Below are positions 43,999 through 63,836 of a DNA stretch of 64,000 nt, piece after piece (within the stretch, counting starts at the first letter, position 1; each line of letters starts with the position of its first letter). The notes under the pieces are model-generated. The model was not told where the DNA came from and ran no database searches. It saw nothing but the letters and a program-made list of their open reading frames with translations. Source of the stretch: an uncultured Prevotella sp. (GTDB taxonomy: Bacteria; Bacteroidota; Bacteroidia; Bacteroidales; Bacteroidaceae); the NCBI GenBank assembly GCA_946404405.1, contig CAMJDL010000007.1, positions 3,711-67,710 of the forward strand, in the 5' to 3' direction. A program made the translations under genes and the position numbers.

Positions 43999-45648
43999 TT
44001 ACTTGCTAAACTTCTTATTCAGTTTACTTTTCACACGAATAGTCTTTGCAGTCTTCTTTGCAGCTCTCTTGGCAGCGGCAGCAGCCTTAATCGGAGTAAA
44101 CTTAGTAGTATGAGCAATCTCAAACCATCCAAGGCCACTTGAGAAGTCCTCGGTATAGGCATATATACCCCATACTACGTCAGCTTCCATAGTACCATCT
44201 GCCTTAACAGTAAATGGAACAGGTACTTCCTCTTCAGTCTCGTTTTCTGCATTATAGAATACCAAACCATACGTAGTACCCTTACTATTGGTATACATTC
44301 CAACAAGCTGACCATCTTCTATGTAAATTTTGCACTCATCCAAGTCATAGTGTCCTTGCAATTGAGAGCCCTCAAGATAGAAGTCTTTAATCAATAGGCC
44401 ATTAGGATTAGCATCGCTTGGGGCCAATTCAATGTTGAAAGGACCAAGGTCGATAGCCTCATCGTTGTAAGTAATATTGCAATTGAAAGTACCTGCAGCC
44501 ATTTCCTTAGTCATGACAAAGCCCTGTTCCCAGTAAACTTTATCAGAATTATAAGCTGCATTACCGTTACCAAATGCATCCTTGAAGACACCCTCAGCGA
44601 TTGCAACAGAGACAATGTCACCTGGCTGAGTTGCTTCGGGCAACATGAAGGTTACCTTCTTAGTTGAGAAATCATCAGCAACACCGAAGTTAATCTTTGC
44701 CTTTGGCAACTTATAGCTGGCAGAGCGACTATTGCCAGTATAGGTAACAACAAAGTCACCATCCTTAACATCATCCTCAATAACATAAACTTTCTCTGCG
44801 AACTCAATAACACCCTCAAATTCTTTCCATTTCAGGAAGGTACTTCCAATCGCAGGAGAAGTAAACTGGCTGTCAGTGATAGCCCAAGTAGTTTGAGGAA
44901 CATGAATCCAAAAGCCTTGGAAAATATCTTCAACGGTCTGAGCCTCAGGATTAACACTTGATATAAATGAGCCACAAGCGTTGCCAACTGCATCTACAAA
45001 GGCACCGGCCTCCCAAGAGAAGAGCACATAAGCACCAGCAGGAGCATCAGTAGCAGTAAGCTGAGTCACTTTGCCACTAATCTGGACGTCAACGTTCTCT
45101 GACTGTACAGGGTTCTCGAAATCATACTCCTTGTAGAATACGGCAGTTACCTTACCTTCACCCCTGAAAATATTCTGGTTGAACTGTACAAGATAAGCCT
45201 TGTTAGCAGCAGATGCCTGAGCAGCTGTTGGTGTTGGAGCACCAGTATCACTGGTCTTAATGCTGGCTGAAGCCACCTTACCAACAATACCCTTCTCATT
45301 ACAAGCCGAAGCATACACATAGTAAGTGGTGTTAGGCTCAGCAGTCTTGACATTGATAGTCGTATCAGGCTGGGCGCTAACTTTCAATACGGTGTTACCA
45401 TATCCACCCTTAATCAGAGTTGCAGAATCAACTGATACAGGAGCTGTGCTAATAGCATAAGCATAGTATGTAGCCCCTGCAGCTGGAGTGATCTGGATAG
45501 TGAAAGCTGAGTCAGTAGGCATGGCGGAAGCTATAGAAACAGCAACCTCAGGACCTACGCCATAGTTCTCAGTGGTGGCATCGTCCCATTTGTTACAGCT
45601 CGTAAGGGCAAGGACTACCAATGCTAAACTATATATAAGTTTCTTCAT
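43999..45648 (-). CDS. Surface lipoprotein with FN3/Ig-like domains (SusE/F-position gene)
   Basis: Lipobox LTSC, EPNTTYYVYA FN3-like motif, basic Ala/Lys-rich C-terminal tail. Confidence 0.75.
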   Translation of the reverse strand: MKKLIYSLALVVLALTSCNKWDDATTENYGVGPEVAVSIASAMPTDSAFTIQITPAAGATYYAYAISTAPVSVDSATLIKGGYGNTVLKVSAQPDTTINVKTAEPNTTYYVYASACNEKGIVGKVASASIKTSDTGAPTPTAAQASAANKAYLVQFNQNIFRGEGKVTAVFYKEYDFENPVQSENVDVQISGKVTQLTATDAPAGAYVLFSWEAGAFVDAVGNACGSFISSVNPEAQTVEDIFQGFWIHVPQTTWAITDSQFTSPAIGSTFLKWKEFEGVIEFAEKVYVIEDDVKDGDFVVTYTGNSRSASYKLPKAKINFGVADDFSTKKVTFMLPEATQPGDIVSVAIAEGVFKDAFGNGNAAYNSDKVYWEQGFVMTKEMAAGTFNCNITYNDEAIDLGPFNIELAPSDANPNGLLIKDFYLEGSQLQGHYDLDECKIYIEDGQLVGMYTNSKGTTYGLVFYNAENETEEEVPVPFTVKADGTMEADVVWGIYAYTEDFSSGLGWFEIAHTTKFTPIKAAAAAKRAAKKTAKTIRVKSKLNKKFSK

Positions 45649-45675
45649 AATTCTTTAGTTTGATAATGGTTTAAA

Positions 45676-46560
45676 CTATTTCTTCAAAACGACACCAGCC
45701 TGGAAAATGTTATACCATCCGCCACTTGTGCCAGCATCATCAGTGTAAACATGAGAACCGAACCAGTCTTGGATTGTGATTGTTCCATTTTCATCGATGA
45801 GACCAGTAATGTAACCACCGGTAGGAATATCTTCTTCACCTTCTTCACCATAGAAGCCTTCCAGCAGGATATGTGGGTAAGAAGAGCTGACTGCAATCTC
45901 CTGACCAACTGGGATGTGAATTTCAGTATGGTCTTCATTAACAACACCATAAACTGGTGACGAAGCACTTGAACCACCATTTACTAAGTTGGTAATCCAA
46001 ACCTTATTCAAATCGGTGTCGTCCTTACCGAAGGTAACCTGCCATTCCTCTTCTCCATTGAAATAAGAAGGACCAACAGCAGTCATAGTACCGAGGATGA
46101 ATGAGAGCGGATGCTCGTCGTCCTCAATAGTAACAACACATGACTTGCTAGCACCAAGAGATGCGCCCTGGGCATTCGACAGTTTAATAGTAAACTTAAC
46201 GTCACCTCCAAAAGTATTATTATCGATAGGTTCAATGATAATGCTCTGAGAAGGAGCATCCTTGGTAAAGGTCAGAGTCTTTGATGCATTACCCAATTTG
46301 TAATTAACGCCCTCAACAGCACCTTTTACAGAATCAGGCTCAATGACAAAGTCTACTGAACCAGAAATACCACTCAAAGAAGTCAACATAACAGGAATCT
46401 CAATAGCCTTTCCTGCATTTTCAGCTACAGATGCTGAACTTGTCTGAATAGCTACGAAAGCATCACCGTCACTGAACGAAGGCAACTCGTTCTTGACACA
46501 TGAAGCCAGCATCAAACCAGCAGCAGCAATCAGTCCGTATGATAATTTAAATATCTTCAT
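45676..46560 (-). CDS. Lipoprotein with a Calx-beta-like domain
   Basis: Lipobox LASC, SVAENAG..AVEGVNY..TLTF..IDNNTFGGDVKFTIKL..VTIEDDE. Confidence 0.75.
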   Translation of the reverse strand: MKIFKLSYGLIAAAGLMLASCVKNELPSFSDGDAFVAIQTSSASVAENAGKAIEIPVMLTSLSGISGSVDFVIEPDSVKGAVEGVNYKLGNASKTLTFTKDAPSQSIIIEPIDNNTFGGDVKFTIKLSNAQGASLGASKSCVVTIEDDEHPLSFILGTMTAVGPSYFNGEEEWQVTFGKDDTDLNKVWITNLVNGGSSASSPVYGVVNEDHTEIHIPVGQEIAVSSSYPHILLEGFYGEEGEEDIPTGGYITGLIDENGTITIQDWFGSHVYTDDAGTSGGWYNIFQAGVVLKK

Positions 46561-46597
46561 AATTGTATATTTTCAATTTTTCTGATTATCAATTCTC

Positions 46598-48025
46598 TTA
46601 ATAGCCAATGTTTTGTTCACAGTTGGGGTTAGCATCCCTCTCATGCTTAGGAATAGGCATAGCCCACTTGTAGTCACCAGCCTTGATGTCCTTATTAACT
46701 GAGCCATCGAAGTCAGTACGGACGAGATCCTTGCCTGTACGAGCATAGTCATAGACAATATGTCCTTCGAACATCAGCTCCTTACGACGCTCGTCGAATG
46801 TGTTGAACTGGGCGGGAACAGTAGCACCACGCTTGTTGGCAATAGCCTCCAAATCACCACGTGCGCTGACACCTGGAATAGAAGCACCGTTTGAAATAGC
46901 CTCTGCACGATTCAGATACATCTCAGAGAGACGCAGAATAGGTACATTGGTCCAACGGGGAACACCACCCTCCTTACCCTTGTACTTGGTGATGAGGTAG
47001 TCGTTCTCGTTCTTCTCAAAGAAATTCAGACGGATATCGCCTTCCTCATACATCTTTACCAAATCCAAGGTAGCACAAACGTCGCCAGAGCCATCGTTAC
47101 CATTGCCCCAACTTGTGATGTAAGGCAGGTGAGTCCAACCTGACTCATCCCAATACTCGTTCTTATTGCTGCCAAACAGCTGGAAGATAATCTCACCTCC
47201 AGCAGGAGCAGTCTGTGCAGAATACATATCGACATAAGCATCGCCACTGAGCAGTGAATACTTACCGCTATTGATAACCGCGGTAGCATAGTCAGCAGAC
47301 TTCTGCCACTCGCCCATATAAAGGTAAACGCGAGACAGGAGAGCCTGGATAGCAGTCTTGGTGGCAGCAGCAGTCTTGTCGCTGATGTCAGCACGGGCAT
47401 AGTTGTCAGCCATAATTTTCTCAGCCTCGGTCAGGTCCTTCAGAATCTGATCGTAAACCTCACCGATTGTGTTACGTTTGGGCTGACCAATCTCAGTCTT
47501 CGTGATAACGGGAACACCGATGGCATCTCTACCAGCCTGTGTATAGGGCTGAGCGTAAGTGATGACAGCATCGAAGTGACAGAGGGCACGCATAAACAAT
47601 GCCTCAGCCTTCAGATTATCCAAATCCTGTTGGGTATGTCCTTGGAACTCTTTACCCTCCAGGTTTGTAATCACGTTACAGCAGCGTGCAATCGTGTAGT
47701 AAGCGTATGCCCAGCAGCTACTGGTACTGCTCTCACTATAGTTCCACTGCGTATCATTGCGATAGCGGCCAGAGCCAGGAATAGAAAGAGGGTTCTTGGC
47801 ATTGCCGGCACGCAACTCTGACTGCAGGATGAACTGACCGTCATACCATGAAGCACTCTGCATCATCGAATAAAGTCCAAGCGTAGCCTGATCAAGACCA
47901 TCGTAAGTAGCAAAGGTAATCTCATTACTCTGCTTCATCTTGGGCTCTTCCTCCAAGAACTTGCTGCAGGAAGAAAATACTCCAGCCACAAGTGTCAGTG
48001 CAAGTCCAAATAATATCTTTTTCAT
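46598..48025 (-). CDS. SusD/RagB nutrient-binding lipoprotein
   Basis: Lipobox FSSC, EALFMRALCHF, VYDQILKDL, ALLSRVYLY, LRLSEMYLNRAEA and ERRKELMFEG. Confidence 0.95.
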   Translation of the reverse strand: MKKILFGLALTLVAGVFSSCSKFLEEEPKMKQSNEITFATYDGLDQATLGLYSMMQSASWYDGQFILQSELRAGNAKNPLSIPGSGRYRNDTQWNYSESSTSSCWAYAYYTIARCCNVITNLEGKEFQGHTQQDLDNLKAEALFMRALCHFDAVITYAQPYTQAGRDAIGVPVITKTEIGQPKRNTIGEVYDQILKDLTEAEKIMADNYARADISDKTAAATKTAIQALLSRVYLYMGEWQKSADYATAVINSGKYSLLSGDAYVDMYSAQTAPAGGEIIFQLFGSNKNEYWDESGWTHLPYITSWGNGNDGSGDVCATLDLVKMYEEGDIRLNFFEKNENDYLITKYKGKEGGVPRWTNVPILRLSEMYLNRAEAISNGASIPGVSARGDLEAIANKRGATVPAQFNTFDERRKELMFEGHIVYDYARTGKDLVRTDFDGSVNKDIKAGDYKWAMPIPKHERDANPNCEQNIGY

Positions 48026-48060
48026 ATTGCTTATTTCTTCTTTAAAAATGTAAATGATGA

Positions 48061-51060
48061 TTAGAACGTAACGTCAAGACCAAGTACGAATGTCTTTGAT
48101 ACAGGATAGATACCATAACCCATACCATCAGTACCGCGCTCAGGATCCCAGAAGTTCACGTCGTGGAAAGTATAGAGGTTCAAAGCACTTCCATATACCT
48201 TAACGGTCTGGAGGCCAATCTTGCCAATCAATGTACGAGGCACACTGTATGACAGCGTAATATCCTTGATACGGAAATAGTCACCCTTCTCAATATAGCG
48301 ATTTGAAGAGAAGCTATAAGAGTTAGTTGCATTACCAGCGATAGGCTTGGGGTTACAACCTGTATCACCCGGTTTCTTCCAGTAATTCAAAGCACTCTTG
48401 GCTTGGTTTATTGACATCTGGTTACCGTCAGACTGCAGGTAACGGTTCTCGATAATGAGCACCTTATTACCACCCTTGAACTCACCAACTACACTCAGAG
48501 TCAAGTCTTTCCAAGAAATGTTGGTATTGATACCACCGGTATAGGTTGGTTCTGGGCTGCCACTCTTGACATAGGCTGCAGCATTAAAGTCGTTAGTCAA
48601 CTCGCCATCCTCGGTGCGCCACAAAGCCTCACCATTGACGGGGTTCACACCAGCATAGTCTTTCAGCCAGAAGGTAAACAGGCTCTCACCAACAATGTGG
48701 CGCAGACGTGAGTCTTCAGAGTAAGCCATCATCTCATCACCAGCAAGTTCCAGAATCTCTGTCTTGTTGTGTGCGATATTGAAACCAACGCTCCACTTCC
48801 AGTCTTTCTTGTCAATGATTTGTGCATCGAGCTGGAACTCAACACCTGAGTTGCGCATTGAACCGATGTTTGTTGTAGCACTTGCGAAACCAGAGGTGTA
48901 CGACAGTGACTTGTCAAGCAACATATCGGTTGTCTTACGGCTGTAGACATCAAAGCTACCAGAGAGAATCTTCAGGAAACGGAAGTCAAGACCGATGTTC
49001 CATGTATAGTTCTTCTCCCATGACAATTTGGGGTTGGCGGGAGTAGAAGGACGAAGACCAGTAGCACCATTGTAAGCTGTAGAGGTGTAGGTACCGTACT
49101 GCTGATAAACGGCAATATTATTATTACCATTGACACCATAGCTGGCGCGCAGTTTCAAAGTATTGATCCAGTTCAGGTTCTGCAAGAATTTCTCATTGTG
49201 GATGTTCCATGATGCACCAAGTGCCCAGAATGTACCCCACTGAGAATCCTGTCCGAAGAGCGAGCTACCATCGGCACGAATACTGGCCTGGAAGTAGTAG
49301 CGGTTGTCATAGTTATAATCCAGGATTCCGAACCAGGACATCATGGTGCGGGTCATCTGGTAGTCCTCTACCTGCATGTCATCAGCAATACCTGATACGT
49401 GGTAAGGAATCTGTGGGTTCAAGCCGTCAGACATCTCCCAAACCATCCAATAATGATATTTGTTAGCTTCCTGGCCACCCAATACACGCAGATTGTGCTT
49501 ATCGAAGAAAGTATCCTGATATGTAATGGTGTTAGAAGTTGTCAAGTTACGATACTGAGCCTGAATGGTCTGCAGTTTCGGATATCCGGCAGCATAGTTA
49601 TGAGCTTCGTTTGACCAATAACGGCGGCTCTCAGTTGAACTGATTTCTGCAGCGTTAGTAGTCTTCAAAGTCAACTGTTTGATAGGTTTCCACTCCAAAT
49701 AGAAGCTACCGTTGAAATTGTACTTCTTCTGCCACTGATCGTCGTAGGCAGCAGTAGCACGTGGGTTCGAGTTAGAGTTCTCAGGAATAGCTGAATTGAA
49801 GTCGCCATTTTCATCATATCTTGGAGTCCAAGGCAGAATGGTCATACCTGCGAAAGCAGGGTTGCTGTAATACAAGCTCTGCATAGGAACGTCTTCGGTA
49901 TAGCTATAACCTGCATTCGTACGGACACCGGTCTTCAGCCACTTGTTGATTTCGTGGTCAACGTTGACACGAGCAGACATACGCTGGAAACCCACTCCGT
50001 AGTAGATACCCTCCTGATTGGTATAAGCCAGAGAGTTGTAGTACTTTGTCTTAGCATTACCACCAGACATGTTAATCTCGTACTCCTGCATCTTACCCTG
50101 ACGAGTGAAGTGATCCATCCAGTTGGTCTGATCACGAGTCAGCAACTCGTAGGGGCGATAGTATGAAGCACCTGCTGTGGGGTTATCAGGATCCTTACCA
50201 GCATTACGCACAGCGTCGCGCTGATACTCTAACAGCTCCTGACCACTCATTACGCCGTAATTGTTGTCATTAGCCAGTGTTGAGATACCAAACTTAACAC
50301 GTGCGGTGAAGTGGCTCTTGCCTTCCTTACCACTCTTAGTGGTAATCAGAATCACACCATTAGCAGCACGACTACCGTAAACAGAAGCTGCAGCAGCATC
50401 TTTCAGCACAGTGATTGACTCAATATCGTCAGGATTAATCATTGACAATGGGTTGGTGCCATTCACCATGTCATCGTCACCGCCATTTGTCAACGTACCT
50501 GTCATGATGGGAATACCGTCAACGACATAAAGGGGTTGGTTACCAGCATTAATAGAGCTGGTACCACGGATACGGATGTCAGATGCAGAACCAGGCTGTC
50601 CTGATTGCTGTGTAACTGACACACCAGCCATTTTACCACTCAACATCTTGTCAACAGAAATGGCAGGGATGTCCTCAATTTGACCACTGCTCAATGACGT
50701 GATAGAACCCGTCTTAGCCTCGCGGCGCTGCGTACCATAACCTACGACGATCACCTCATCAAGAGCCTTCTGGTCGTTGGTTAAGATAATACGCATGTTG
50801 GGGCGGGCACTTACCTCGATGGGTTCCATACCTACGTATGTAATACGCAAGGTATTCTTACCAGCCGGTGCCGTCAGCGAGAACTTACCGTTAGCATCAG
50901 TAATGGCACCAATATTCGTTCCAACTACGAGGACACTTGCACCCACAACGGGTTCATTGTCTTCCTGAGCGATAACGGTACCATTAACCTTGGTCTGGGC
51001 CAGCGCTGTTCCTACCATCAGGAGCATCGCAGCCAGAAGCATTGTTAATCTTTGTTTCAT
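48061..51060 (-). CDS. SusC/RagA TonB-dependent outer-membrane transporter
   Basis: LDEVIVVGYG, IRIRGTSSI..PLYVVDG, INPDDIESITVLKDAAAASVYGSRAANGVILITTK, LSWEK and terminal Phe. Confidence 0.97.
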   Translation of the reverse strand: MKQRLTMLLAAMLLMVGTALAQTKVNGTVIAQEDNEPVVGASVLVVGTNIGAITDANGKFSLTAPAGKNTLRITYVGMEPIEVSARPNMRIILTNDQKALDEVIVVGYGTQRREAKTGSITSLSSGQIEDIPAISVDKMLSGKMAGVSVTQQSGQPGSASDIRIRGTSSINAGNQPLYVVDGIPIMTGTLTNGGDDDMVNGTNPLSMINPDDIESITVLKDAAAASVYGSRAANGVILITTKSGKEGKSHFTARVKFGISTLANDNNYGVMSGQELLEYQRDAVRNAGKDPDNPTAGASYYRPYELLTRDQTNWMDHFTRQGKMQEYEINMSGGNAKTKYYNSLAYTNQEGIYYGVGFQRMSARVNVDHEINKWLKTGVRTNAGYSYTEDVPMQSLYYSNPAFAGMTILPWTPRYDENGDFNSAIPENSNSNPRATAAYDDQWQKKYNFNGSFYLEWKPIKQLTLKTTNAAEISSTESRRYWSNEAHNYAAGYPKLQTIQAQYRNLTTSNTITYQDTFFDKHNLRVLGGQEANKYHYWMVWEMSDGLNPQIPYHVSGIADDMQVEDYQMTRTMMSWFGILDYNYDNRYYFQASIRADGSSLFGQDSQWGTFWALGASWNIHNEKFLQNLNWINTLKLRASYGVNGNNNIAVYQQYGTYTSTAYNGATGLRPSTPANPKLSWEKNYTWNIGLDFRFLKILSGSFDVYSRKTTDMLLDKSLSYTSGFASATTNIGSMRNSGVEFQLDAQIIDKKDWKWSVGFNIAHNKTEILELAGDEMMAYSEDSRLRHIVGESLFTFWLKDYAGVNPVNGEALWRTEDGELTNDFNAAAYVKSGSPEPTYTGGINTNISWKDLTLSVVGEFKGGNKVLIIENRYLQSDGNQMSINQAKSALNYWKKPGDTGCNPKPIAGNATNSYSFSSNRYIEKGDYFRIKDITLSYSVPRTLIGKIGLQTVKVYGSALNLYTFHDVNFWDPERGTDGMGYGIYPVSKTFVLGLDVTF

Positions 51061-55294: not shown

Positions 55295-55331
55295 TGATGT
55301 TGATAATAAAATCGGCTGCAAAGATACGTAA

Positions 55332-55365
55332 AAAAGTGAAAAGTGAAAAGTGAAAAGTGAAAAAT
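55332..55365 (+). repeat. Heptamer array (AAAAGTG) x4 between divergent GH30 and metG promoters
   Basis: aaaagtg aaaagtg aaaagtg aaaagtg aaaaatt. Confidence 0.9.
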
Positions 55366-55436
55366 TTGCTACTGCCATTGTCATTTTTCATTTTTTTTCG
55401 TAATTTTGCAGCCAAAATAAAAATAAAGAAAACAAA

Positions 55437-57503
55437 ATGGGAGAAAAAAAGTTTAAGAGAACAACTGTGACCTCGGCATTGCCCTACGCCAATGGCGGTG
55501 TGCATATCGGTCACCTGGCTGGCGTTTACGTGCCAGCAGATATCTATGTGCGTTACCTTCGTCTGAAGAAGGAGGACGTGATGTTCATTGGCGGTTCTGA
55601 CGAGCACGGTGTGCCCATCACGGTACGTGCCCGCAAAGAAGGTATCACACCACAGGACGTCGTGGACCGCTATCATAAGATGATTAAGGACTCGTTCGAG
55701 GAGTTCGGCATTTCGTTCGATATTTATAGCCGTACGACCTCAGAGACCCACCATAAGTTTGCTGCCGAGTGGTTCCGCAAGCTCTATGACGAGGGCAAAC
55801 TGGTAGAAGAAACTACCGAACAGCTGTACGACGAGGAGGCCAAGCAGTTCCTGGCCGACCGTTATGTGACGGGCGAATGTCCCCACTGCCACAACGAAGG
55901 TGCGTATGGCGACCAGTGTGAGAAGTGCGGACGCGACCTGAGTCCTACGGAATTGATTAACCCCAAGTCGACCATCAGCGGTTCAACACCTGTATTGAAG
56001 GAGACAAAGAACTGGTATCTACCTCTGAATGAATATCAGGAGTGGCTGAAGCAATGGATTCTGGAAGGTCACAAGGAGTGGCGCCCCAATGTCTATGGTC
56101 AATGCAAGTCGTGGTTGGAGATGGATTTGCAGCCCCGTGCTATGACACGCGACCTGAACTGGGGTATCCCCGTGCCCATCGAGGGTGCAGAAGGCAAAGT
56201 GCTGTATGTGTGGTTCGACGCGCCTATCGGTTATGTGTCTAACACGGTAGAATTGTGCGAGAAGGAGCCTGAAAAGTGGGGCTCATGGGAAAAGTGGTGG
56301 CAGGATGAGGACACTCGTCTGGTGCATTTCATCGGTAAGGACAACATCGTGTTCCACTGCATCATCTTCCCCGTCATGATGAAGGCTCACGGCAAATATA
56401 TCATGCCCGACAACGTGCCCTCTAACGAGTTCCTGAATCTGGAGAACGACAAGATTTCCACCTCTCGCAACTGGGCCGTGTGGTTGCACGAATACTTAGA
56501 GGATATGCCTGGCAAGCAGGACGTGCTGCGCTATGTGCTGACTGCCAATGCCCCTGAGACCAAGGACAACAACTTCACTTGGAAGGATTTCCAAGATCGT
56601 AACAACAACGAGCTGGTGGCTGTGTATGGCAATTTCGTAAACCGTGCCCTGCAGCTGACCAAGAAATACTGGAATGGCGTAGTGCCTGCTTGTGGCGAAC
56701 TGAACGACACAGACAAGGCTACCCTTGCTGAATTCAAGGACGTCAAGCAGAAGGTAGAGGCTCTGCTCGACCAGTTTAAGTTCCGCGATGCCCAGTTCGA
56801 GGCTATGAATCTGGCCCGTATCGGTAACCGCTACATCACCGAGTGCGAGCCTTGGAAGGTTTGGAAGTGCGACTGCAAGCGTTGCGAGACCATTCTGAAT
56901 ATTTGCCTGCAATTGACAGCCAACTTGGCTATCGCCTTCGAGCCGTTCCTGCCCTTCTCAAGCAAGAAGCTGCGCGACATGCTGAACCTCGAGAGTTTCG
57001 ACTGGAACGAGCTGGGCTCGACAGACCTGCTGAAGGCTGGTCACAAGCTGGGTGAGCCCGCCCTATTGTTCGAGAAAATTGAGGACGACGCTATCCAGAA
57101 ACAGCTCGACAAGCTGGAGGCCACCAAGAAGGCCAATGAAGCAGCCCAATACAAGGCTGCTCCTATCAAGGACACCGTATCGTTCGAAGACTTCGAGAAG
57201 CTCGATATCCGTGTGGGTCTTATCAAGGACTGCCAGAAGGTAAAGAAGTCGAAGAAGCTCCTTCAGTTTACCATCGACGATGGTTCAGGTACGGACCGCA
57301 CCATCCTTAGTGGTATCGCTGCTTTCTATGACGACCCATCAGTATTGGTTGGCAAGCGCATCCTCTTTGTAGCAAACTTCGCCCCACGTGCCATGATGGG
57401 CATCGAGAGCCAAGGCATGATACTCTCTGCTGTCGACTTCGATGAAAGCCTCAGCGTGGTAACCACGACGAAAGACGTGAAACCAGGAAGCCAAGTCGGT
57501 TAA
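55437..57503 (+). CDS. metG: Methionine--tRNA ligase
   Basis: [13 protein letters not shown], zinc knuckle CPHC/CEKC, YVWFDA, KISTS and C-terminal tRNA-binding domain. Confidence 0.97.
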
Positions 57504-57532
57504 CGGTTATTGGTTAAAGGTTAAGGGTTATG
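57498..57532 (+). repeat. Heptamer array (GGTTAWN) x5
   Basis: ggttaac ggttatt ggttaaa ggttaag ggttatg contains the metG stop and the next start codon. Confidence 0.85.
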
Positions 57533-59377
57533 CAGGCAATTATATTGGCAGCGGGCATGGGGCGCCGTTTGGGCGACTACACAAAGGACAACACGAAGTG
57601 TATGGTCCCCGTGAATGGTGTGCAACTGATTGACAGGCTGTTAGGCCAGCTGGCCAAACAACAGTTGAAGCGTGTCATCATCGTCGTGGGCTACAAGGGC
57701 AAGGAATTGCGCGAGTACATCGAGACGACATATCTCTCACCTCTTACCTCTCACTCCTCACCTCTAAAAATAGAATTCGCCGAAAACCCCGTCTACGACA
57801 AGACCAACAACATCTATTCGTTGGCTATTGTTAAGGACAAATTGCAGGAAGACGACACGCTGCTCATCGAGAGTGACCTCATCTTCAGCGAACGAATGAT
57901 TCCCATGATTGTCGACAACCCCTACCCCAACCTTGCCCTCGTTGCCAAATACGAGACATGGATGGATGGTACGATGGTGCGGCTAGACGACGAGCAGAAC
58001 ATCGTGAACTTCATCTCGAAGGACGCATTTGACTACAATGACGTGGACTCTTACTATAAGACTGTCAACATATATAAACTCAGTAAGCAGTTCTCGCAGC
58101 AGAAGTATGTGCCTTTCCTTGATGCCTACACGAAGGCTGTTGGCAATAACGAATACTACGAGAACGTGCTGCGTATCATCTCGTTGCTGAACAACCACGA
58201 CATGAAAGCCCTGCCCATCGGCAACGAGAAGTGGTACGAAATAGACGATAAGCAGGATTTGGACATTGCCGAGGCGCTGTTTGCAGATGAAAAGGATGTG
58301 CTTCGCAAGTACTACGGTCGTTATGGCGGTTTTTGGCGCTTCCCCCAGATGCTCGACTTCTGCTATTTGGTGAACCCCTACTTCCCCAGTCGCAGAATGA
58401 AGGACGAATTGCGTGCCAATTTCGATACGCTGCTGACGGAATATCCCTCTGGTATGAAGGTCAACACGCTCATTGCCAGCAAGTGCTTTGGAGTGAGCGA
58501 GCTTTATATCGTTCCAGGAAACGGGGCTGCTGAACTCATTAAGGTACTGATGGAAGCACCGCAAGGTAAGACTGGTTTTATCCGTCCCACCTTCGAGGAA
58601 TATCCCAACAGATATGACAAAGACAGCCAAGTGACGTTTGTGCCTCAGAACGAGGACTATCGCTATACGGCTGACGACCTGATGGCATTCTTTGGCGACA
58701 AGGATATCCGGCAGTTGATGGTCATCAACCCTGACAACCCTTCAGGAAACTTCATTCCCAAGGCAGACATCCTACGTTTGGCACAATGGTGTGAGGACAA
58801 GGGCATCCGTCTTGTCGTTGACGAATCCTTTGTCGATTTTAGTGAGGACTATGCTACCAATTCTCTTTTGAGCGACGAAATATTGGAGGCCTATCCCCAC
58901 ATGGCGGTCATGAAGAGCATTTCGAAGAGCTATGGTGTCCCTGGTCTTCGCTTGGGCATTCTCTGCTCTGCTGACAAAGACCTTATTGCGCGCATCAAGA
59001 AAGAGGTGAGCATTTGGAATCTCAACTCCTTTGCCGAGTTCTTCATGCAGATTTACAACAAGCACGAAAAGGACTACCAGCGGGCCTGTGCAAAGTTTGT
59101 TGCTGAACGTGATAACTTTGAACAACAGCTTCGCACTATTCCTTTCCTGCGTGTGATGCCTTCACAAGCCAACTACTTCCTCTGCGAAGTGCTGCCCCCC
59201 TACAAGGCCAGCGAAATTGTCATCTACATGCTGAAGCAGCATAATATCCTGACACGTGACTGTAGTGGAAAGACGGGGTTGAATCCTGATAAGCAGTATA
59301 TGCGCATCGCCGTCAGGAATCATGAGGACAACTCACGACTTGTTGAAGGTCTTAAAGAACTAAAAATTACACAATAG
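57530..59377 (+). CDS. Fusion of a LicC-like nucleotidyl(cytidylyl)transferase and a CobD/HisC-like class I/II PLP enzyme
   Basis: N-term AIILAAGMGRRL..TKCMV, NPVYDKTNNIYSL, IESDL, WYEIDDKQDL. C-term LDFCYLVNPY, GNGAAELI, INPDNPSG, VDESF and PLP lysine motif KSISKSYGVPGLRLG. Confidence 0.88.
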   Translation: MQAIILAAGMGRRLGDYTKDNTKCMVPVNGVQLIDRLLGQLAKQQLKRVIIVVGYKGKELREYIETTYLSPLTSHSSPLKIEFAENPVYDKTNNIYSLAIVKDKLQEDDTLLIESDLIFSERMIPMIVDNPYPNLALVAKYETWMDGTMVRLDDEQNIVNFISKDAFDYNDVDSYYKTVNIYKLSKQFSQQKYVPFLDAYTKAVGNNEYYENVLRIISLLNNHDMKALPIGNEKWYEIDDKQDLDIAEALFADEKDVLRKYYGRYGGFWRFPQMLDFCYLVNPYFPSRRMKDELRANFDTLLTEYPSGMKVNTLIASKCFGVSELYIVPGNGAAELIKVLMEAPQGKTGFIRPTFEEYPNRYDKDSQVTFVPQNEDYRYTADDLMAFFGDKDIRQLMVINPDNPSGNFIPKADILRLAQWCEDKGIRLVVDESFVDFSEDYATNSLLSDEILEAYPHMAVMKSISKSYGVPGLRLGILCSADKDLIARIKKEVSIWNLNSFAEFFMQIYNKHEKDYQRACAKFVAERDNFEQQLRTIPFLRVMPSQANYFLCEVLPPYKASEIVIYMLKQHNILTRDCSGKTGLNPDKQYMRIAVRNHEDNSRLVEGLKELKITQ

Positions 59378-59416
59378 GGTCGGTTCCTCTGTGTACCGCT
59401 GTGTAAAATAAGGAAT

Positions 59417-60424
59417 ATGAAGATTTGTATCTGCGGAGGTGGCAACCTTGGACATGTCGTAGCGGGCTTTGTGGCAGCACAGAACGAGCACGAAGTATGT
59501 CTGTTGACACGCCAGCCTGAACGTTGGAGTCAAAACATCCTTATTGATGCACCTGAACAAACGACATACTCAGGTCGCCTAAGTGGCATATTTAGCGATG
59601 CCAAACAAGCCGTTTCTGATGCCGACATTGTATTGCTTTGCCTTCCTGGCTACGGCATTCGCGAGACTCTATTTCAGATAAAAGATTACCTGAGACCAGA
59701 TACCGCCGTTGGTAGCGTGGTCAGTAGTACGGGATTCTTTTTCCAAGCTATGGAACTACTGCCGAAGGTCCAGCCACTCTTTGGATTCCAGCGTGTACCG
59801 TTCATCTCGCGTATTGAGGAATACGGTCATCGTGCACGTTTAATGGGCTACAAGGACAGCCTTGAACTTGCCATCGAACAATCCTGTAACCCAGAATCGC
59901 TTCGTCAAGTCTTGCAGCAAATGCTTCGCACACCAATTCATCTCCTTGGGAGCCATTATGAAGTAAGCCTATCAAACAGCAACCCATTGCTCCATCCATC
60001 GCGTCTCTATTCCCTATGGAAAGACTGGCATGAGGGTATCGTCTATGACCACATACCTTTATTCTATGAGGAATGGACGGAAGAGGCTGCACGACTCTAT
60101 ATTCAAATGGACAATGAACTGCAAGCATTATTAGAACAATTGCCTGTTACACCAGGCAGCATCGCCACCGTACTCGACTATTACGAGAGTCACGATGCAA
60201 AATCGCTGGCTTGCAAGCTACGAAGCATAAAAGCCTTTAAGGGCATTCTGTCGCCTATGAAAGAAGTGGAAGGTGGCTATGTACCCGACTTCCACAGTCG
60301 TTATTTCACAGAGGATTTCCCCTACGGTCTTGCTTTCGTCCATCGTCTGGCTCACGAAAAAGGCATCCCCTCGCCCACTATCGATATGATTTACAACTGG
60401 GGAACAAGGATGGTTAACGGTTAA
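59417..60424 (+). CDS. NAD(P)-dependent opine (octopine/nopaline) dehydrogenase family protein
   Basis: Rossmann ICGGGNLGH, SNSNPLLHP and SRYFTEDFPYGL opine-DH C-terminal motif. Confidence 0.85.
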   Translation: MKICICGGGNLGHVVAGFVAAQNEHEVCLLTRQPERWSQNILIDAPEQTTYSGRLSGIFSDAKQAVSDADIVLLCLPGYGIRETLFQIKDYLRPDTAVGSVVSSTGFFFQAMELLPKVQPLFGFQRVPFISRIEEYGHRARLMGYKDSLELAIEQSCNPESLRQVLQQMLRTPIHLLGSHYEVSLSNSNPLLHPSRLYSLWKDWHEGIVYDHIPLFYEEWTEEAARLYIQMDNELQALLEQLPVTPGSIATVLDYYESHDAKSLACKLRSIKAFKGILSPMKEVEGGYVPDFHSRYFTEDFPYGLAFVHRLAHEKGIPSPTIDMIYNWGTRMVNG

Positions 60425-60453
60425 TGGTTATTGATTAACGGTTAATAGTTATT
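60412..60453 (+). repeat. Heptamer array (GGTTAAN) x6
   Basis: ggttaac ggttaat ggttatt gattaac ggttaat agttatt spans the convergent stops of the opine DH and LicD genes. Confidence 0.85.
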
Positions 60454-61237
60454 TGTCTAACCAATACGCTTCGAAATGATGGGTAACGCGTTGCTCCACA
60501 GGGGGTAACGTCATATAGTCGCCATAGGTGCGCTCGAGATAGTCCTTATAGCCCACCATCGTCTTATACAGCTTTCCCTCGAACTCGATATCTACTGACG
60601 AAGCAATATCCTCTGCAGGGAAACAACCCTTTATCTTTGGGCCAGCCTCCGTCATATTGCAAACTGTACGTGTTGGCTCCTCCAACACAATGAGATTCCT
60701 GATTTTACGCTCTATCTGTTTGACTGTCATTGGCCAACACTTATAGACAATATATGCCAGACGCGACTGGAGAGGATTGCTATTCGAAATCTTGCAACGA
60801 CGAATTTTGTACAGCAGTTTCTTCTGTTTGAAGACACGTTCACGTTCCTGCAAGTCATCCGTCACATAGTCTACAGGAAAGATATCCATATAGACACCTA
60901 TCTCATAACCCTCGGTCTCATCCTCCACCATTTTAGTACGCTGGTCAACGACCTTCGCAAACGTATAGTAGTAATGAGGTTCTGTGCAGGGATTAATGGC
61001 ACGATAGATACCATTGGCATCGGAATACGTCTGTAAAAACTGCTCATAGTCCTTGCGAGGCATATAGATGTCAATATCGTCGTCCCAGGGGATATAACCC
61101 TTATGGCGCACGGCACCTATCAGTGTACCGCTTGACAGGAAGTAACGCAGTCCCTGCTCCTCACAAAACTGGTGCACACTATCCAGAATACCCATCTGAA
61201 TCTGGCGCAACTCCTGTATGTCTTCTATCTTTCTCAT
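60449..61237 (-). CDS. LicD family phosphotransferase (CDP-alcohol to glycan)
   Basis: GTLIGAVRHKGYIPWDDDIDIYMPRKDY, MDIFPVD and YLERTYGDYMTLPP. Confidence 0.93.
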   Translation of the reverse strand: MRKIEDIQELRQIQMGILDSVHQFCEEQGLRYFLSSGTLIGAVRHKGYIPWDDDIDIYMPRKDYEQFLQTYSDANGIYRAINPCTEPHYYYTFAKVVDQRTKMVEDETEGYEIGVYMDIFPVDYVTDDLQERERVFKQKKLLYKIRRCKISNSNPLQSRLAYIVYKCWPMTVKQIERKIRNLIVLEEPTRTVCNMTEAGPKIKGCFPAEDIASSVDIEFEGKLYKTMVGYKDYLERTYGDYMTLPPVEQRVTHHFEAYWLDK

Positions 61238-61240
61238 CGT

Positions 61241-62335
61241 TTATGAACGTCCAAACAGCCACTTCTTGAAGAACGGACTGATGCGGAGGATATTTGATGT
61301 AATGATACTGAAACCAATGACGACCAGTCCCAAAACCGTAGAAAGCAAGATATCTATGACAAAGTTATGTGGATAGCTCTTGAAGAATTCGCCTACGTGT
61401 GGCAAGTCGGGCATAAACAGGAAGTGAATGAGATAGATGTCCAGCGTTCGACGTCCGATATACTGCAGCGAAGCGCCCATAAAGGTCAGTTTCGTAAAAT
61501 ACTGGTGGTAGTGACGGAAATACATGAAGGTAATGGTCAGCAGGCCAAATCGTGATACCGTCAAAGGTATAATGGCCCATGCCATACGCAATGTACGCCA
61601 TTTCAGTGCATCGAGCGTTGCCAGGATGACAATAACAATCACAATAGGGAAGAACCACTTGCTATCCATCACGCGCTGCCACTTATCCCAATAGCGATGT
61701 ACGATATTACCGTAGAGGAAGAAAGGGAAATACAGGAATACCTGAACAAAACTCGAGTCTTGCAGGAAGTAGAACAAGTCGGTTTTTGCGCCCTTATAGC
61801 CTTGTGCCCATGAGAAATACTTTGGCAGATAGTTCGTTTCGTAAAAACCTATTGATATCAAGAACAATAATGTGATGGGTATCCATGATTTCCATTTCAA
61901 CTTACTCTCAAGATATGAGAACACGTAATAAATGATAAACATGTAGAGCAGTGCTATGGTAAACCAATAGCCGCCTTTCAAGGGGGAATGGAATGCGTCT
62001 TCAATGGCAGGCAGAATATGTTGATTCAATATAGCCATAGCCAGAAAGAAGAAAACTACCGTAGGAATGGTCTGCACCTTGACCTTCTTCCAAATCAAAG
62101 AACCAAAATTCTTCAGATTCCAAATCTGCGAGGCTTTATAAGCCAAGAAGCCGCTGACAAAAAAGAACAGCGGCATTCTGAATAATATCAAGAAGGGGAT
62201 AGCTGACGAATGTTTCCATTCCTCGCCAAAGCCCATACCTGCCACGTGGTTGGCAACAACCAGTATCATTGTGAATCCTCTTAGGGCATCAAGCCACTCC
62301 AAACGAGGCTTTTTAACTACTGCATTATTCTCCAT
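61241..62335 (-). CDS. Acyltransferase family 3 (membrane O-acyl/acetyltransferase)
   Basis: RLEWLDALRGFTMILVVANH, FRMPLFFFVSG, YWF and IGRRTLDIYLIH. Start moved to ATG 62335 behind a TAAATTTG promoter. Confidence 0.88.
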   Translation of the reverse strand: MENNAVVKKPRLEWLDALRGFTMILVVANHVAGMGFGEEWKHSSAIPFLILFRMPLFFFVSGFLAYKASQIWNLKNFGSLIWKKVKVQTIPTVVFFFLAMAILNQHILPAIEDAFHSPLKGGYWFTIALLYMFIIYYVFSYLESKLKWKSWIPITLLFLISIGFYETNYLPKYFSWAQGYKGAKTDLFYFLQDSSFVQVFLYFPFFLYGNIVHRYWDKWQRVMDSKWFFPIVIVIVILATLDALKWRTLRMAWAIIPLTVSRFGLLTITFMYFRHYHQYFTKLTFMGASLQYIGRRTLDIYLIHFLFMPDLPHVGEFFKSYPHNFVIDILLSTVLGLVVIGFSIITSNILRISPFFKKWLFGRS

Positions 62336-62402
62336 AGCTGGGTGCAAATTTACACATAATATTTTGATTTTCAAATAAAATATAGTATTTTTGCACACTG
62401 AA

Positions 62403-63836
62403 ATGGATAATTTAAAGGAAAAGACGGCAAAAGGTATTGCCTGGGGAGCCATCAACAATGGAGCTACTCAGGTGTTGAATCTTGTCTTTGGCATATTCTT
62501 AGGACGTCTTCTTTCTACAGAAGACTATGGTATTCTGGCACTGATTACCATTTTTACTTTGCTGGCAGGTTGCATCCAGGCGGCAGGTTTCTCGCAGGCA
62601 CTGGCCAACTTGAAGCCTCCCACTCAGCGCGACTATAACGCAGTGGCATGGTTCAACATCATTGCCGGATTCTCCTTATATATTATACTCTTTCTTTGTG
62701 CACCACTGATTGCATGGTTTTTTGACCAGCCCGCGCTGACTGATGTGTCACGACTGGCCTTCCTTGCTATCCCCATCTCGGCTATCGGTATCGTTCCTAA
62801 TGCCAGATTATGGATTGAGCTGCGCAATCGTGAACAAGCCATTGCTAGCATAGCCGCCCTGCTGACGTCAGGGTGTTGTGGTGTATGGCTGGCTTGGAAC
62901 GGATACGGCTACTGGAGTCTGGCTTGGCAACAGGTCATATACATCAGTGTCGCTAATATCTTCAAATACTATTTTACACGCTGGATACCCACCCTGCCTG
63001 TCGACTTCAGTCCCATTCGCAGGATGTTCAGTTTCTCGTCGAAGATGTTAGCGACGAACATGCTGACAGTCATTAGCCAGAACGTACTGACGTTTATCTT
63101 TGGTAAACTGCTGCCCATCTCGACTGTAGGACTATTCAACCAGGCAAACAAATGGAATACGATGGGGAGTTCACTGATTTCAAACACAATGGCACAGGTG
63201 GCGCAACCCGTCTTGTCGAACGTCAATAGTGAAGAGGAACGCCAAGAGCGTATCTTCCGCAAGATGCTGCGTTTTACGTCCCTCCTGTCCTTCCCGCTGA
63301 TGTTTGGATTGGCACTGACAGCCCACGAATTCATTCTCCTGACTGTCGGACCAACGTGGGAGCGTTGTGTACCCCTACTTCAGATACTGTGTATAGGAGG
63401 AGCCTGCCTCCCTCTACAAGGCCTCTACCAGAATTTCATCATCAGCCGTGGGCGCTCTGATATCTACCTGCGCATGGTAGCACTCCAGATTTTCCTCCAG
63501 GTAGGCATCACGCTGAGTCTGTCGTCACAGGGTATTACCACGATGGTAGCTGCCTTTTCTACATTGAACGTGCTATATACCGTCTGCTGGCATCTCGCCC
63601 TTCAACGCATCCACGCCTTGGCTTTGTTCGATGTTCTGAAAGACACGGTTCCGTTTGCACTCATTGCCGCCCTTGTAATGCTGGCAACCCACTATATAAC
63701 ACTGTCCATCGACATACTTTGGTTGTTGCTGCTGTCACGTGTCGTCACAGCCGCCCTACTCTATTTCATTGTCATGCGCCTGCTCAACGTGGCAATCTTG
63801 AAAGAGTGCCTACAATTTATCCGAAAGAAGCAATAA
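62403..63836 (+). CDS. Wzx/WzxC-type polysaccharide flippase
   Basis: LKEKTAKGIAWG, LGRLLSTEDYG, GYWSLAWQQ and VGLFNQANKW, many TM segments. Confidence 0.9.
   Translation: MDNLKEKTAKGIAWGAINNGATQVLNLVFGIFLGRLLSTEDYGILALITIFTLLAGCIQAAGFSQALANLKPPTQRDYNAVAWFNIIAGFSLYIILFLCAPLIAWFFDQPALTDVSRLAFLAIPISAIGIVPNARLWIELRNREQAIASIAALLTSGCCGVWLAWNGYGYWSLAWQQVIYISVANIFKYYFTRWIPTLPVDFSPIRRMFSFSSKMLATNMLTVISQNVLTFIFGKLLPISTVGLFNQANKWNTMGSSLISNTMAQVAQPVLSNVNSEEERQERIFRKMLRFTSLLSFPLMFGLALTAHEFILLTVGPTWERCVPLLQILCIGGACLPLQGLYQNFIISRGRSDIYLRMVALQIFLQVGITLSLSSQGITTMVAAFSTLNVLYTVCWHLALQRIHALALFDVLKDTVPFALIAALVMLATHYITLSIDILWLLLLSRVVTAALLYFIVMRLLNVAILKECLQFIRKKQ

Follow-up and report, generated by a model that had tools for sequence, protein, structure and literature searches.

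A cytidylyltransferase–PLP fusion, an opine dehydrogenase and LicD: a candidate cassette for decorating a Prevotella surface glycan with N-(1-carboxyethyl)ethanolamine phosphate

What would an opine dehydrogenase do in a locus that otherwise resembles a pathway for decorating surface glycans? The question is raised by a 64,000-nucleotide stretch of DNA from an uncultured Prevotella sp. (GenBank assembly GCA_946404405.1, contig CAMJDL010000007.1, positions 3,711 to 67,710 of the forward strand; the window hereafter), in which a gene that joins a cytidylyltransferase to a pyridoxal phosphate (PLP) enzyme lies ahead of an opine dehydrogenase gene, with a gene for a LicD-family transferase converging on the pair. 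We think it fairly probable that this cassette leads from phosphoserine to CDP-ethanolamine, caps its amine with an N-(1-carboxyethyl) group and hands the product to LicD, so that the substituent is N-(1-carboxyethyl)ethanolamine phosphate. The cassette is probably a real, conserved and as yet undescribed variant of CDP head-group tailoring. A preliminary description, made from the letters of the window, had pointed to the same unit with an AT3 acyltransferase and a Wzx flippase alongside, and the open reading frames (ORFs) and domains it named are real and intact. The core features are these:

57530-59377, + strand: cytidylyltransferase–PLP fusion, 615 amino acids (NTP_transf_3/NTP_transferase at residues 3-130, Aminotran_1_2 at residues 326-607)
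57530..58294, + strand: N-terminal LicC/PntC-type cytidylyltransferase domain of the fusion, about residues 1-255
58295..59377, + strand: C-terminal fold-type-I PLP domain of the fusion, with predicted PLP lysine K466 and a DESF motif
59417-60424, + strand: opine (octopine-type) dehydrogenase, 335 amino acids, with an N-terminal Rossmann fold (Octopine_DH PF02317, E 2e-33)
60449-61237, - strand: LicD-family phospho-head-group transferase (PF04991, E 7e-45), 24 bp from the dehydrogenase gene

In the scheme that we propose, the fusion would convert O-phospho-L-serine and CTP into CDP-ethanolamine, and the dehydrogenase would join the amine of CDP-ethanolamine to pyruvate with NAD(P)H, giving CDP-N-(1-carboxyethyl)ethanolamine. 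LicD would then place N-(1-carboxyethyl)ethanolamine phosphate on a lipid-linked glycan, which Wzx would flip once it is decorated. The analysis itself shows the genes, their folds and catalytic residues, their linkage, the gene fusions and the exchange of partners. The choice of phosphoserine as substrate and of pyruvate as keto acid is inferred, as are a decarboxylation in place of a transamination, action of the dehydrogenase after cytidylylation, the order of the fusion's two steps and the acceptor glycan.

Linkage, gene fusions and partner exchange

The co-occurrence survey proposed in the preliminary description came out in favor of a linked cassette. In 17 of 18 GTDB loci the fusion immediately precedes the dehydrogenase. 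We then pooled 69 relative loci whose dehydrogenase is at least 40% identical; the window's own locus was set aside, as were two duplicates, six loci that were distant or partial and one that lacks a dehydrogenase. In this pool the fusion adjoined the dehydrogenase in 60 and lay no more than three genes away in 64; one of those counted as non-adjacent, L071, is adjacent by coordinates, the miss being due to the ORF caller. LicD falls within the fetched locus in 43 of the 69, adjacent or fused in 29, and the count rises to 47 if a TagF-like transferase is accepted in place of LicD; 30 of the loci have a flippase and 18 have metG. One cultured strain, Alloprevotella rava DSM 22548 (L015), has the fusion, the dehydrogenase and LicD. 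In a fixed set of 401 family genomes, with the dehydrogenase clade called at E below 1e-50, 56 carry the dehydrogenase, 92 the fusion and 54 both, against 12.8 expected under independence, a comparison that is not a valid P value because kin are not independent. Across a phylum-wide sample PF02317 appears in 3 of 301 genomes, so its distribution within Bacteroidota is patchy. Fusion, dehydrogenase and LicD also occur together in polysaccharide clusters on metagenome contigs with a GC content of 26-29%, which probably belong to other phyla, and four low-GC metagenome contigs (L163 and L165-L167) have the pair or trio in a different gene order.

Gene fusions and exchanges of partners are the strongest evidence, and they connect the dehydrogenase with CDP head-group chemistry. 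Fusions in the order dehydrogenase–LicD are seen in 5 of the 69 loci and in proteins P0122 and P0146, and the reverse order in P0238; in P0210 and P0240 the dehydrogenase follows a CTP_transf_like domain, a cytidylyltransferase of a different fold from that of the cassette. We also fetched 40 fusion loci, from 39 genomes, that have no linked dehydrogenase; in 18 of them a gene of the OCD/mu-crystallin family, not homologous to the dehydrogenase, stands directly behind the fusion. One protein in this position is L125:5543-6493. Of the 401 genomes, 27 carry this OCD clade; 24 of the 27 have the fusion, and just one of these also has the dehydrogenase, whereas independence of the two would predict about 14 among the fusion genomes. 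When the OCD label is mapped on a FastTree tree of 100 fusions, 13 changes are required, and starred branches force at least 10 of them, which indicates repeated swapping and not a single lineage; this tree and the quick IQ-TREE trees were built without bootstraps and gave long-branch or composition warnings. Tauropine, the N-(1-carboxyethyl) derivative of taurine, is a sulfonate analogue of the proposed head group. Among the members of the OCD superfamily are the tauropine and strombine dehydrogenases (PMC4141209).

Two further loci show exchanges of a similar kind. At L096:3807-10309 (G616:C10), a complete aminoethylphosphonate pathway takes the place of the fusion: genes for a PntC-like protein, phosphoenolpyruvate (PEP) mutase, phosphonopyruvate decarboxylase and 2-aminoethylphosphonate (AEP) transaminase (two ORFs) are followed by the opine dehydrogenase and, downstream of it, by a TagF-like transferase and Wzx; this arrangement predicts an N-(1-carboxyethyl)aminoethylphosphonate substituent. 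At L120:7977-11439, on a Gloeothece verrucosa plasmid (NC_014502.1), an S-adenosylmethionine (SAM) methyltransferase gene sits between fusion and LicD, with glycosyltransferases around them; such a set is a candidate for making phosphocholine or N-methyl-ethanolamine phosphate de novo, with no need to take up choline. Read together, the swaps are most simply explained by a slot in which the nitrogen of an activated aminoethyl-phosphoryl group is modified.

Other arrangements were seen on the way. One locus, L098, holds the fusion, the dehydrogenase, PEP mutase and Ppd together. In Fusobacterium vincentii (L117:7023-12866, NZ_CP084075.1), a fusion 47% identical to that of the window occupies a polysaccharide locus with LicD and without a dehydrogenase; a formyltransferase gene lies just upstream of it and a DUF1015 gene just downstream, possibly for N-formylation of the head group and phosphoserine supply. 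Distant fusions (about 32%) on Erwinia and Priestia plasmids (L118, L119), with ATP-grasp and MFS genes, look like parts of small-molecule biosynthetic clusters, and the Erwinia cluster also has a CDP-alcohol phosphatidyltransferase.

Predicted chemistry of the fusion and the dehydrogenase

Which amine does the fusion activate? Its N-terminal domain finds Tde-PntC (6pd1, E 5e-8) and then LicC (1jyk, E 3e-7) as its best PDB matches, and of the nucleotidyltransferase motif G9, G11, R13 and K23 are conserved, GMGRR..TK deviating from the GxG(T/S)RxnPK consensus. The amine pocket is formed by Glu104/Glu196 in PntC and Asp105/Asp192 in LicC, and steric discrimination against choline has been discussed for it (PMC6697681). 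At these positions the fusion has E114 and E211, both of which are unchanged in 102 of 102 fusion sequences (Glu211 being mapped through the LicC alignment, as the HMMER alignment to PntC is shifted by one residue), so that the pocket is Glu/Glu as in PntC and not the Asp/Asp choline pocket of LicC. Such a pocket makes a small primary amine the likely ligand and a carboxyethylated amine a poor fit, which in turn suggests that the dehydrogenase acts after cytidylylation.

The PLP domain most resembles decarboxylases. SMUL_1544 is its best PDB match (6oux, E 1e-41), ahead of CobD (1lc5, 2e-29) and the HisC structures 8bj1/1fg3 (1e-16 to 7e-16), and ranks first by sequence, by profile and by Foldseek fold search, the last with a model of the fusion that is weak (pLDDT 61) and served for fold ranking only. 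SMUL_1544 reportedly decarboxylates an O-phospho amino acid to an amino-alcohol phosphate, and a Sulfurospirillum homologue is annotated 'norcobamide biosynthesis serine-O-phosphate decarboxylase'. The motifs quoted in the preliminary description are present (LDFCYLVNP, GNGAAE and DESF), as is SISK466 with the SxSK lysine. DESF agrees with the DESF/DEAF of the aligned decarboxylases, whereas the genome's separate HisC, on contig C21 beside hisD/hisG-like genes in a his operon, has DEAY; we infer that DExF and DExY may separate decarboxylases from transaminases here. The domain is thus likely to be a decarboxylase of O-phospho-L-serine (or CDP-serine). Its earlier description as CobD-like holds for the motifs and for the decarboxylase-like nearest structures, and fails on the CobD cut-off (187.7 bits for TIGR01140, the best NCBIfam model, against 290.55) and on cobamide context. 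Between phosphoserine and phosphothreonine, which had both been offered as substrates, the former is favored and the latter disfavored by the top match to SMUL_1544 and the negative search for CbiB; the genome also encodes a probable SerC (438 bits, cut-off 444). Campylobacter Cj1436, which decarboxylates phosphoserine and belongs to a capsule locus, is a precedent (PMC11800397).

The dehydrogenase has an octopine-dehydrogenase-like fold. It scores 116 bits against PF02317 (cut-off 30), its model is confident (pLDDT 91), and the best Foldseek match is the scallop octopine dehydrogenase (OcDH) of Pecten maximus (3c7a/3c7d; TM 0.83 to 3c7d), with Arthrobacter CENDH (1bg6) at TM 0.80; all share the Rossmann motif, the His-Asp dyad and the NADH-sensing Arg. 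H193, D300 and R295 align with OcDH H212, D329 and R324; H193 is kept in 77 of 77 locus sequences, and D300 and R295 in 76 of 77 each. H212, R324 and the His-Asp relay have been described for OcDH (PMC2924402). The window enzyme differs in having Gln125 in place of the arginine-binding Glu142 and Arg126 in place of Thr143, as well as in its surface-glycan gene context. It is predicted to N-carboxyethylate the amine of CDP-ethanolamine; we found no report of an opine dehydrogenase acting on a nucleotide-linked amine in the searchable literature. R126 and R196, two arginines conserved in the clade, were considered as proof of phosphate binding and rejected as not diagnostic, because Burkholderia dehydrogenases of non-glycan clusters have the same residues.

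Some relatives of the enzyme stand in other settings. On Paraburkholderia and Burkholderia plasmids (L114, L115), two convergent opine dehydrogenases accompany a methyltransferase and a gene of the phytanoyl-CoA-dioxygenase family in an unexplained opine-type cluster, and in P0098 (a cluster of 33 members) a dehydrogenase of the same clade is fused to a HAD hydrolase. A phage collection gave one weak partial match, and an Atlas search with a homologue returned Octopine_DH clusters only.

The proposed product has a known counterpart. The substituent 2-[(R)-1-carboxyethylamino]ethyl phosphate, which the preliminary description named for Proteus, is real: R-Cet-EtnP is a substituent of P. mirabilis O-polysaccharide (PMC9630907). 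The same description called the modification zwitterionic; by chemical reasoning the charged nitrogen and the phosphate stand and a neutral zwitterion does not, as a negative phosphodiester, a negative carboxylate and a positive amine would leave a net anionic group. P. mirabilis has a 328-residue dehydrogenase of the same clade, 33% identical to the window enzyme, whose listed cluster members together occur on about 100 contigs. Relatives are also present in P. terrae, Providencia and Xenorhabdus, and on a quick tree this group lies nearest the LicD-fused P0238 (support 92). One Proteus dehydrogenase of this kind is WP_196748949.1. The amino-acid bias of the Proteus enzyme (FYMINK 0.48 against 0.25 for the siderophore-cluster enzyme described below) fits an AT-rich accessory locus and is a hint only. 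Metagenome and viral scans with the Proteus dehydrogenase returned no Proteus locus, and the main text of a Proteus gene-cluster paper (PMC5560731) has no mention of carboxyethyl, octopine or lic. No paper on these enzymes in glycan decoration was among the matches listed in a literature search on the pathway and product, which did not reach most subscription journals, where the bulk of Proteus carbohydrate work appears; the earlier statement that no characterized enzyme set is known in Bacteroidota stands, in that the searchable literature yielded no published enzymes for it.

The cassette can be compared with several known systems. It shares LicC-type CDP activation, LicD transfer and an accompanying flippase with the Lic pathway (LicA/B/C/D; for example P. 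mirabilis O18, PMC8027243), but it differs in its Glu/Glu pocket, its extra opine dehydrogenase, the absence of a detected kinase and, in the window, of a choline transporter, and a head group predicted to be made intracellularly by the fused PLP domain. With the Treponema denticola Pnt system (PntC-AEPT, 6pd1; PMC6697681) it has in common a cytidylyltransferase–PLP fusion, the Glu104/Glu196-type pocket and surface tailoring, but its PLP domain is of class I/II (CobD/HisC-like) rather than class V, no PEP mutase was found, and a phosphate ester rather than a C–P bond is predicted. The absence of choline kinase and PEP mutase, first noted for the window, extends to the genome, which is 84% complete: it has no PF01633 match, no PEP mutase match above cut-off or motif, and likewise no CbiB and no cobamide pathway marker that we could find. 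In architecture alone the fusion compares with FrbH of Streptomyces rubellomurinus, whose FR-900098 pathway has a phosphonate substrate and an antibiotic product: this one protein cytidylylates 2-amino-4-phosphonobutyrate and decarboxylates it with PLP, and N-tailoring continues on the CMP-bound intermediate (PMC6697681, PMC8007912). With that two-step precedent, cytidylylation may come before decarboxylation here, and the route may run through CDP-serine. SMUL_1544, Salmonella CobD and Cj1436 share decarboxylation of an O-phospho amino acid and give the best sequence and fold match to the PLP domain; they stand alone and feed cobamide linkers or glucuronamides, whereas the domain here is fused to a cytidylyltransferase.

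If the proposed pathway is right, it would account enzymatically for a substituent that has so far been seen only in O-antigen structures of Proteus, and opine dehydrogenases would gain a part in building the cell surface. A mass shift of +195.030 Da is predicted in the glycoproteomes or polysaccharides of an abundant gut family, 77 of whose 401 searched genomes carry the fusion with one of the two reductases. It would also reveal a modular head-group logic, in which a kinase-free source of CDP-ethanolamine has its nitrogen left free, methylated or carboxyalkylated. A change in surface charge would follow, and the binding of phage, antibodies and cationic peptides might plausibly change as well. 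We hold only tentatively, and with more doubt than belief, the wider view that this is a widespread and so far undescribed route to N-(1-carboxyethyl)ethanolamine phosphate in which an opine dehydrogenase or an interchangeable, unrelated OCD reductase acts on a CDP-linked amine, serving the protein O-glycan of many species of the Prevotella family and Proteus Cet-EtnP, with a phosphonate analogue in at least one genome.

Evidence against the pathway, and alternatives

Several observations weigh against the pathway as proposed. LicD is encoded on the other strand, which means that the three genes do not form a single operon; four more LicD matches are present in the genome; the LicDs that adjoin the cassette across loci belong to several clades at about 30% identity; and 26 of the 69 loci have no LicD in the fetched stretch, some of which end at contig ends. 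The PLP domain is below the HisC cut-off (TIGR01141, 141 bits against 276.55) as well as that of CobD, and nothing in the data fixes pyruvate. Non-glycan Burkholderia dehydrogenases nest in the same broad clade as the window enzyme, and the sole readable Proteus locus (strain H63, from a plasmid collection) holds a different, siderophore-cluster dehydrogenase and no LicD in its record. Neither reductase is present in 15 of the 92 fusion genomes (54 have the opine dehydrogenase, 24 the OCD/mu-crystallin-family protein and 1 both), so capping is optional. Finally, the searchable literature holds no enzyme assay or glycan structure for a cassette-bearing strain.

How much room do these points leave for other explanations? 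Somewhat unlikely, in our judgment, is that the same three-step cassette runs on other chemistry, with aminopropanol phosphate (from phosphothreonine) or serinol phosphate (from dihydroxyacetone phosphate, DHAP), or with 2-oxoglutarate or glyoxylate as the keto acid, to give another N-carboxyalkyl head group. Opine dehydrogenases do accept several keto acids, and CobD is the second PDB match and, at 188 bits, the best NCBIfam model; moreover, the HisC-like Cj1437 transaminates DHAP to serinol phosphate in a Campylobacter capsule locus, which counts against our reading as well (PMC11800397). Yet SMUL_1544 outranks CobD, DESF is of the decarboxylase type and not DEAY, no cobamide pathway marker was found that would supply phosphothreonine, and the AEP-linked dehydrogenase of L096 points to a two-carbon aminoethyl group. 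The nearest solved relatives of the dehydrogenase use pyruvate, and Cet-EtnP is a known substituent. An improbable variant has the fusion and LicD deliver plain ethanolamine phosphate while the dehydrogenase does something else, such as making a free opine for redox balance or N-carboxyethylating an amino sugar or amino-acid amide. Genomes with the fusion and neither reductase, the F. vincentii locus with fusion and LicD but no dehydrogenase, and the same-clade Burkholderia enzymes are what this variant would lead one to see, but the dehydrogenase is hardly ever seen apart from a source of aminoethyl phosphate (54 of 56 genomes, plus L096), is fused to LicD and to cytidylyltransferases in varied arrangements, and is nearly mutually exclusive with the OCD-family protein.

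The head group might instead be made as proposed but attached to a lipid, such as a glycolipid or diacylglycerol, and not to a glycan chain. LicD has a weak match to the diacylglycerol cholinephosphotransferase Mf1 model (90 bits, cut-off 225) and distant fusions lie beside CDP-alcohol phosphatidyltransferases in Erwinia and rhizobia; set against these, clade neighbors are flippases and glycosyltransferases (a flippase in 30 of 69 loci), no CDP-alcohol phosphatidyltransferase is among the annotated recurring neighbors, and we regard a lipid acceptor as very improbable. We give still less weight to a conventional Lic pathway for phosphocholine or Pnt pathway for aminoethylphosphonate, or to a spare HisC or CobD. 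The resemblance of the cytidylyltransferase to both LicC and PntC, and the presence of LicD, would suit the first two, but the kinase and mutase searches were negative in the 84% complete genome and the pocket is not Asp/Asp; a spare PLP domain is opposed by the separate HisC in its his operon and by the lack of a detectable CbiB.

Acceptor glycan and surrounding genes

Where would the substituent go? The genes flanking the cassette bear on this:

55437-57503, + strand: metG, methionyl-tRNA synthetase, a context gene (Pfam tRNA-synt_1g, E 3e-162), 26 bp upstream of the fusion
61241-62458 (ORF), - strand: AT3 membrane acyltransferase, Acyl_transf_3 (PF01757, E 4e-23); the start is probably the ATG at 62332, giving 363 amino acids and matching homologue lengths
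62391-63836 (ORF; Wzx feature from 62403), + strand: Wzx flippase (match to NF058658)

Two GT2 genes follow Wzx just past the window's end, and beyond them come nadD-like and gmk-like genes, labels given from sequence only. Bacteroides protein O-glycosylation (lfg) loci begin with metG and wzx and end with two conserved glycosyltransferases, one of them the orthologue of the fucosyltransferase BF4306 (PMC8698959, PMC12871550), and this outline is present here as metG, the cassette with AT3, wzx and the two GT2 genes. Nothing else in the genome scores as well as this Wzx against NF058658, the model for O-glycosylation flippases (594 bits, the next copy scoring 325). The locus differs from lfg in having the cassette between metG and wzx, genes on both strands and a flippase under the model's cut-off of 720. 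Because the locus follows metG and carries that best flippase match, the acceptor in this genome is probably, given the chemistry, the outer part of the general protein O-glycan, with LicD predicted to take the substituent from CDP and add it there; many relatives have the same cassette inside capsule or O-antigen-type clusters. AT3 likely O-acylates the glycan as an accessory rather than a constant part of the cassette, its homologue cluster appearing in 13 of the 79 loci that were clustered. Among named genomes, the nearest relatives belong to Prevotellaceae/Bacteroidaceae, and many of them come from the rumen.

Evidence on expression was sparse. Promoter and terminator scans at the locus came out near chance level. 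RNA runs contained 5-8% of words, and a sheep-gut run gave short identical contigs over the dehydrogenase start and AT3; as such contigs cannot show transcription or operon structure, we left them unused as expression evidence.

The same genome (G000) has other loci with related enzymes. A capsule-type locus at G000:C14:21196-39187, with two LicD genes, a class V PLP enzyme, a second Wzx, a probable BCCT-type transporter and acyl-carrier-type genes, looks like another head-group system, and at G000:C9:77626-82353 a LicC-like nucleotidyltransferase, a DegT-like PLP gene and LicD stand among glycosyltransferases. At G000:C2:6099-9223 a HisC-like PLP gene (DEAY), a membrane protein gene and a probable CDP-alcohol phosphatidyltransferase, so labeled by its sequence appearance, may form an amino-lipid pathway separate from the cassette. 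Elsewhere in the window, a SusC/SusD-like pair with two downstream lipoproteins (43999-51060, - strand) is ordinary by sequence appearance, and a short element at about 55330-55372, between a GH-like gene and metG, matches many unrelated contigs and is probably a dispersed intergenic repeat.

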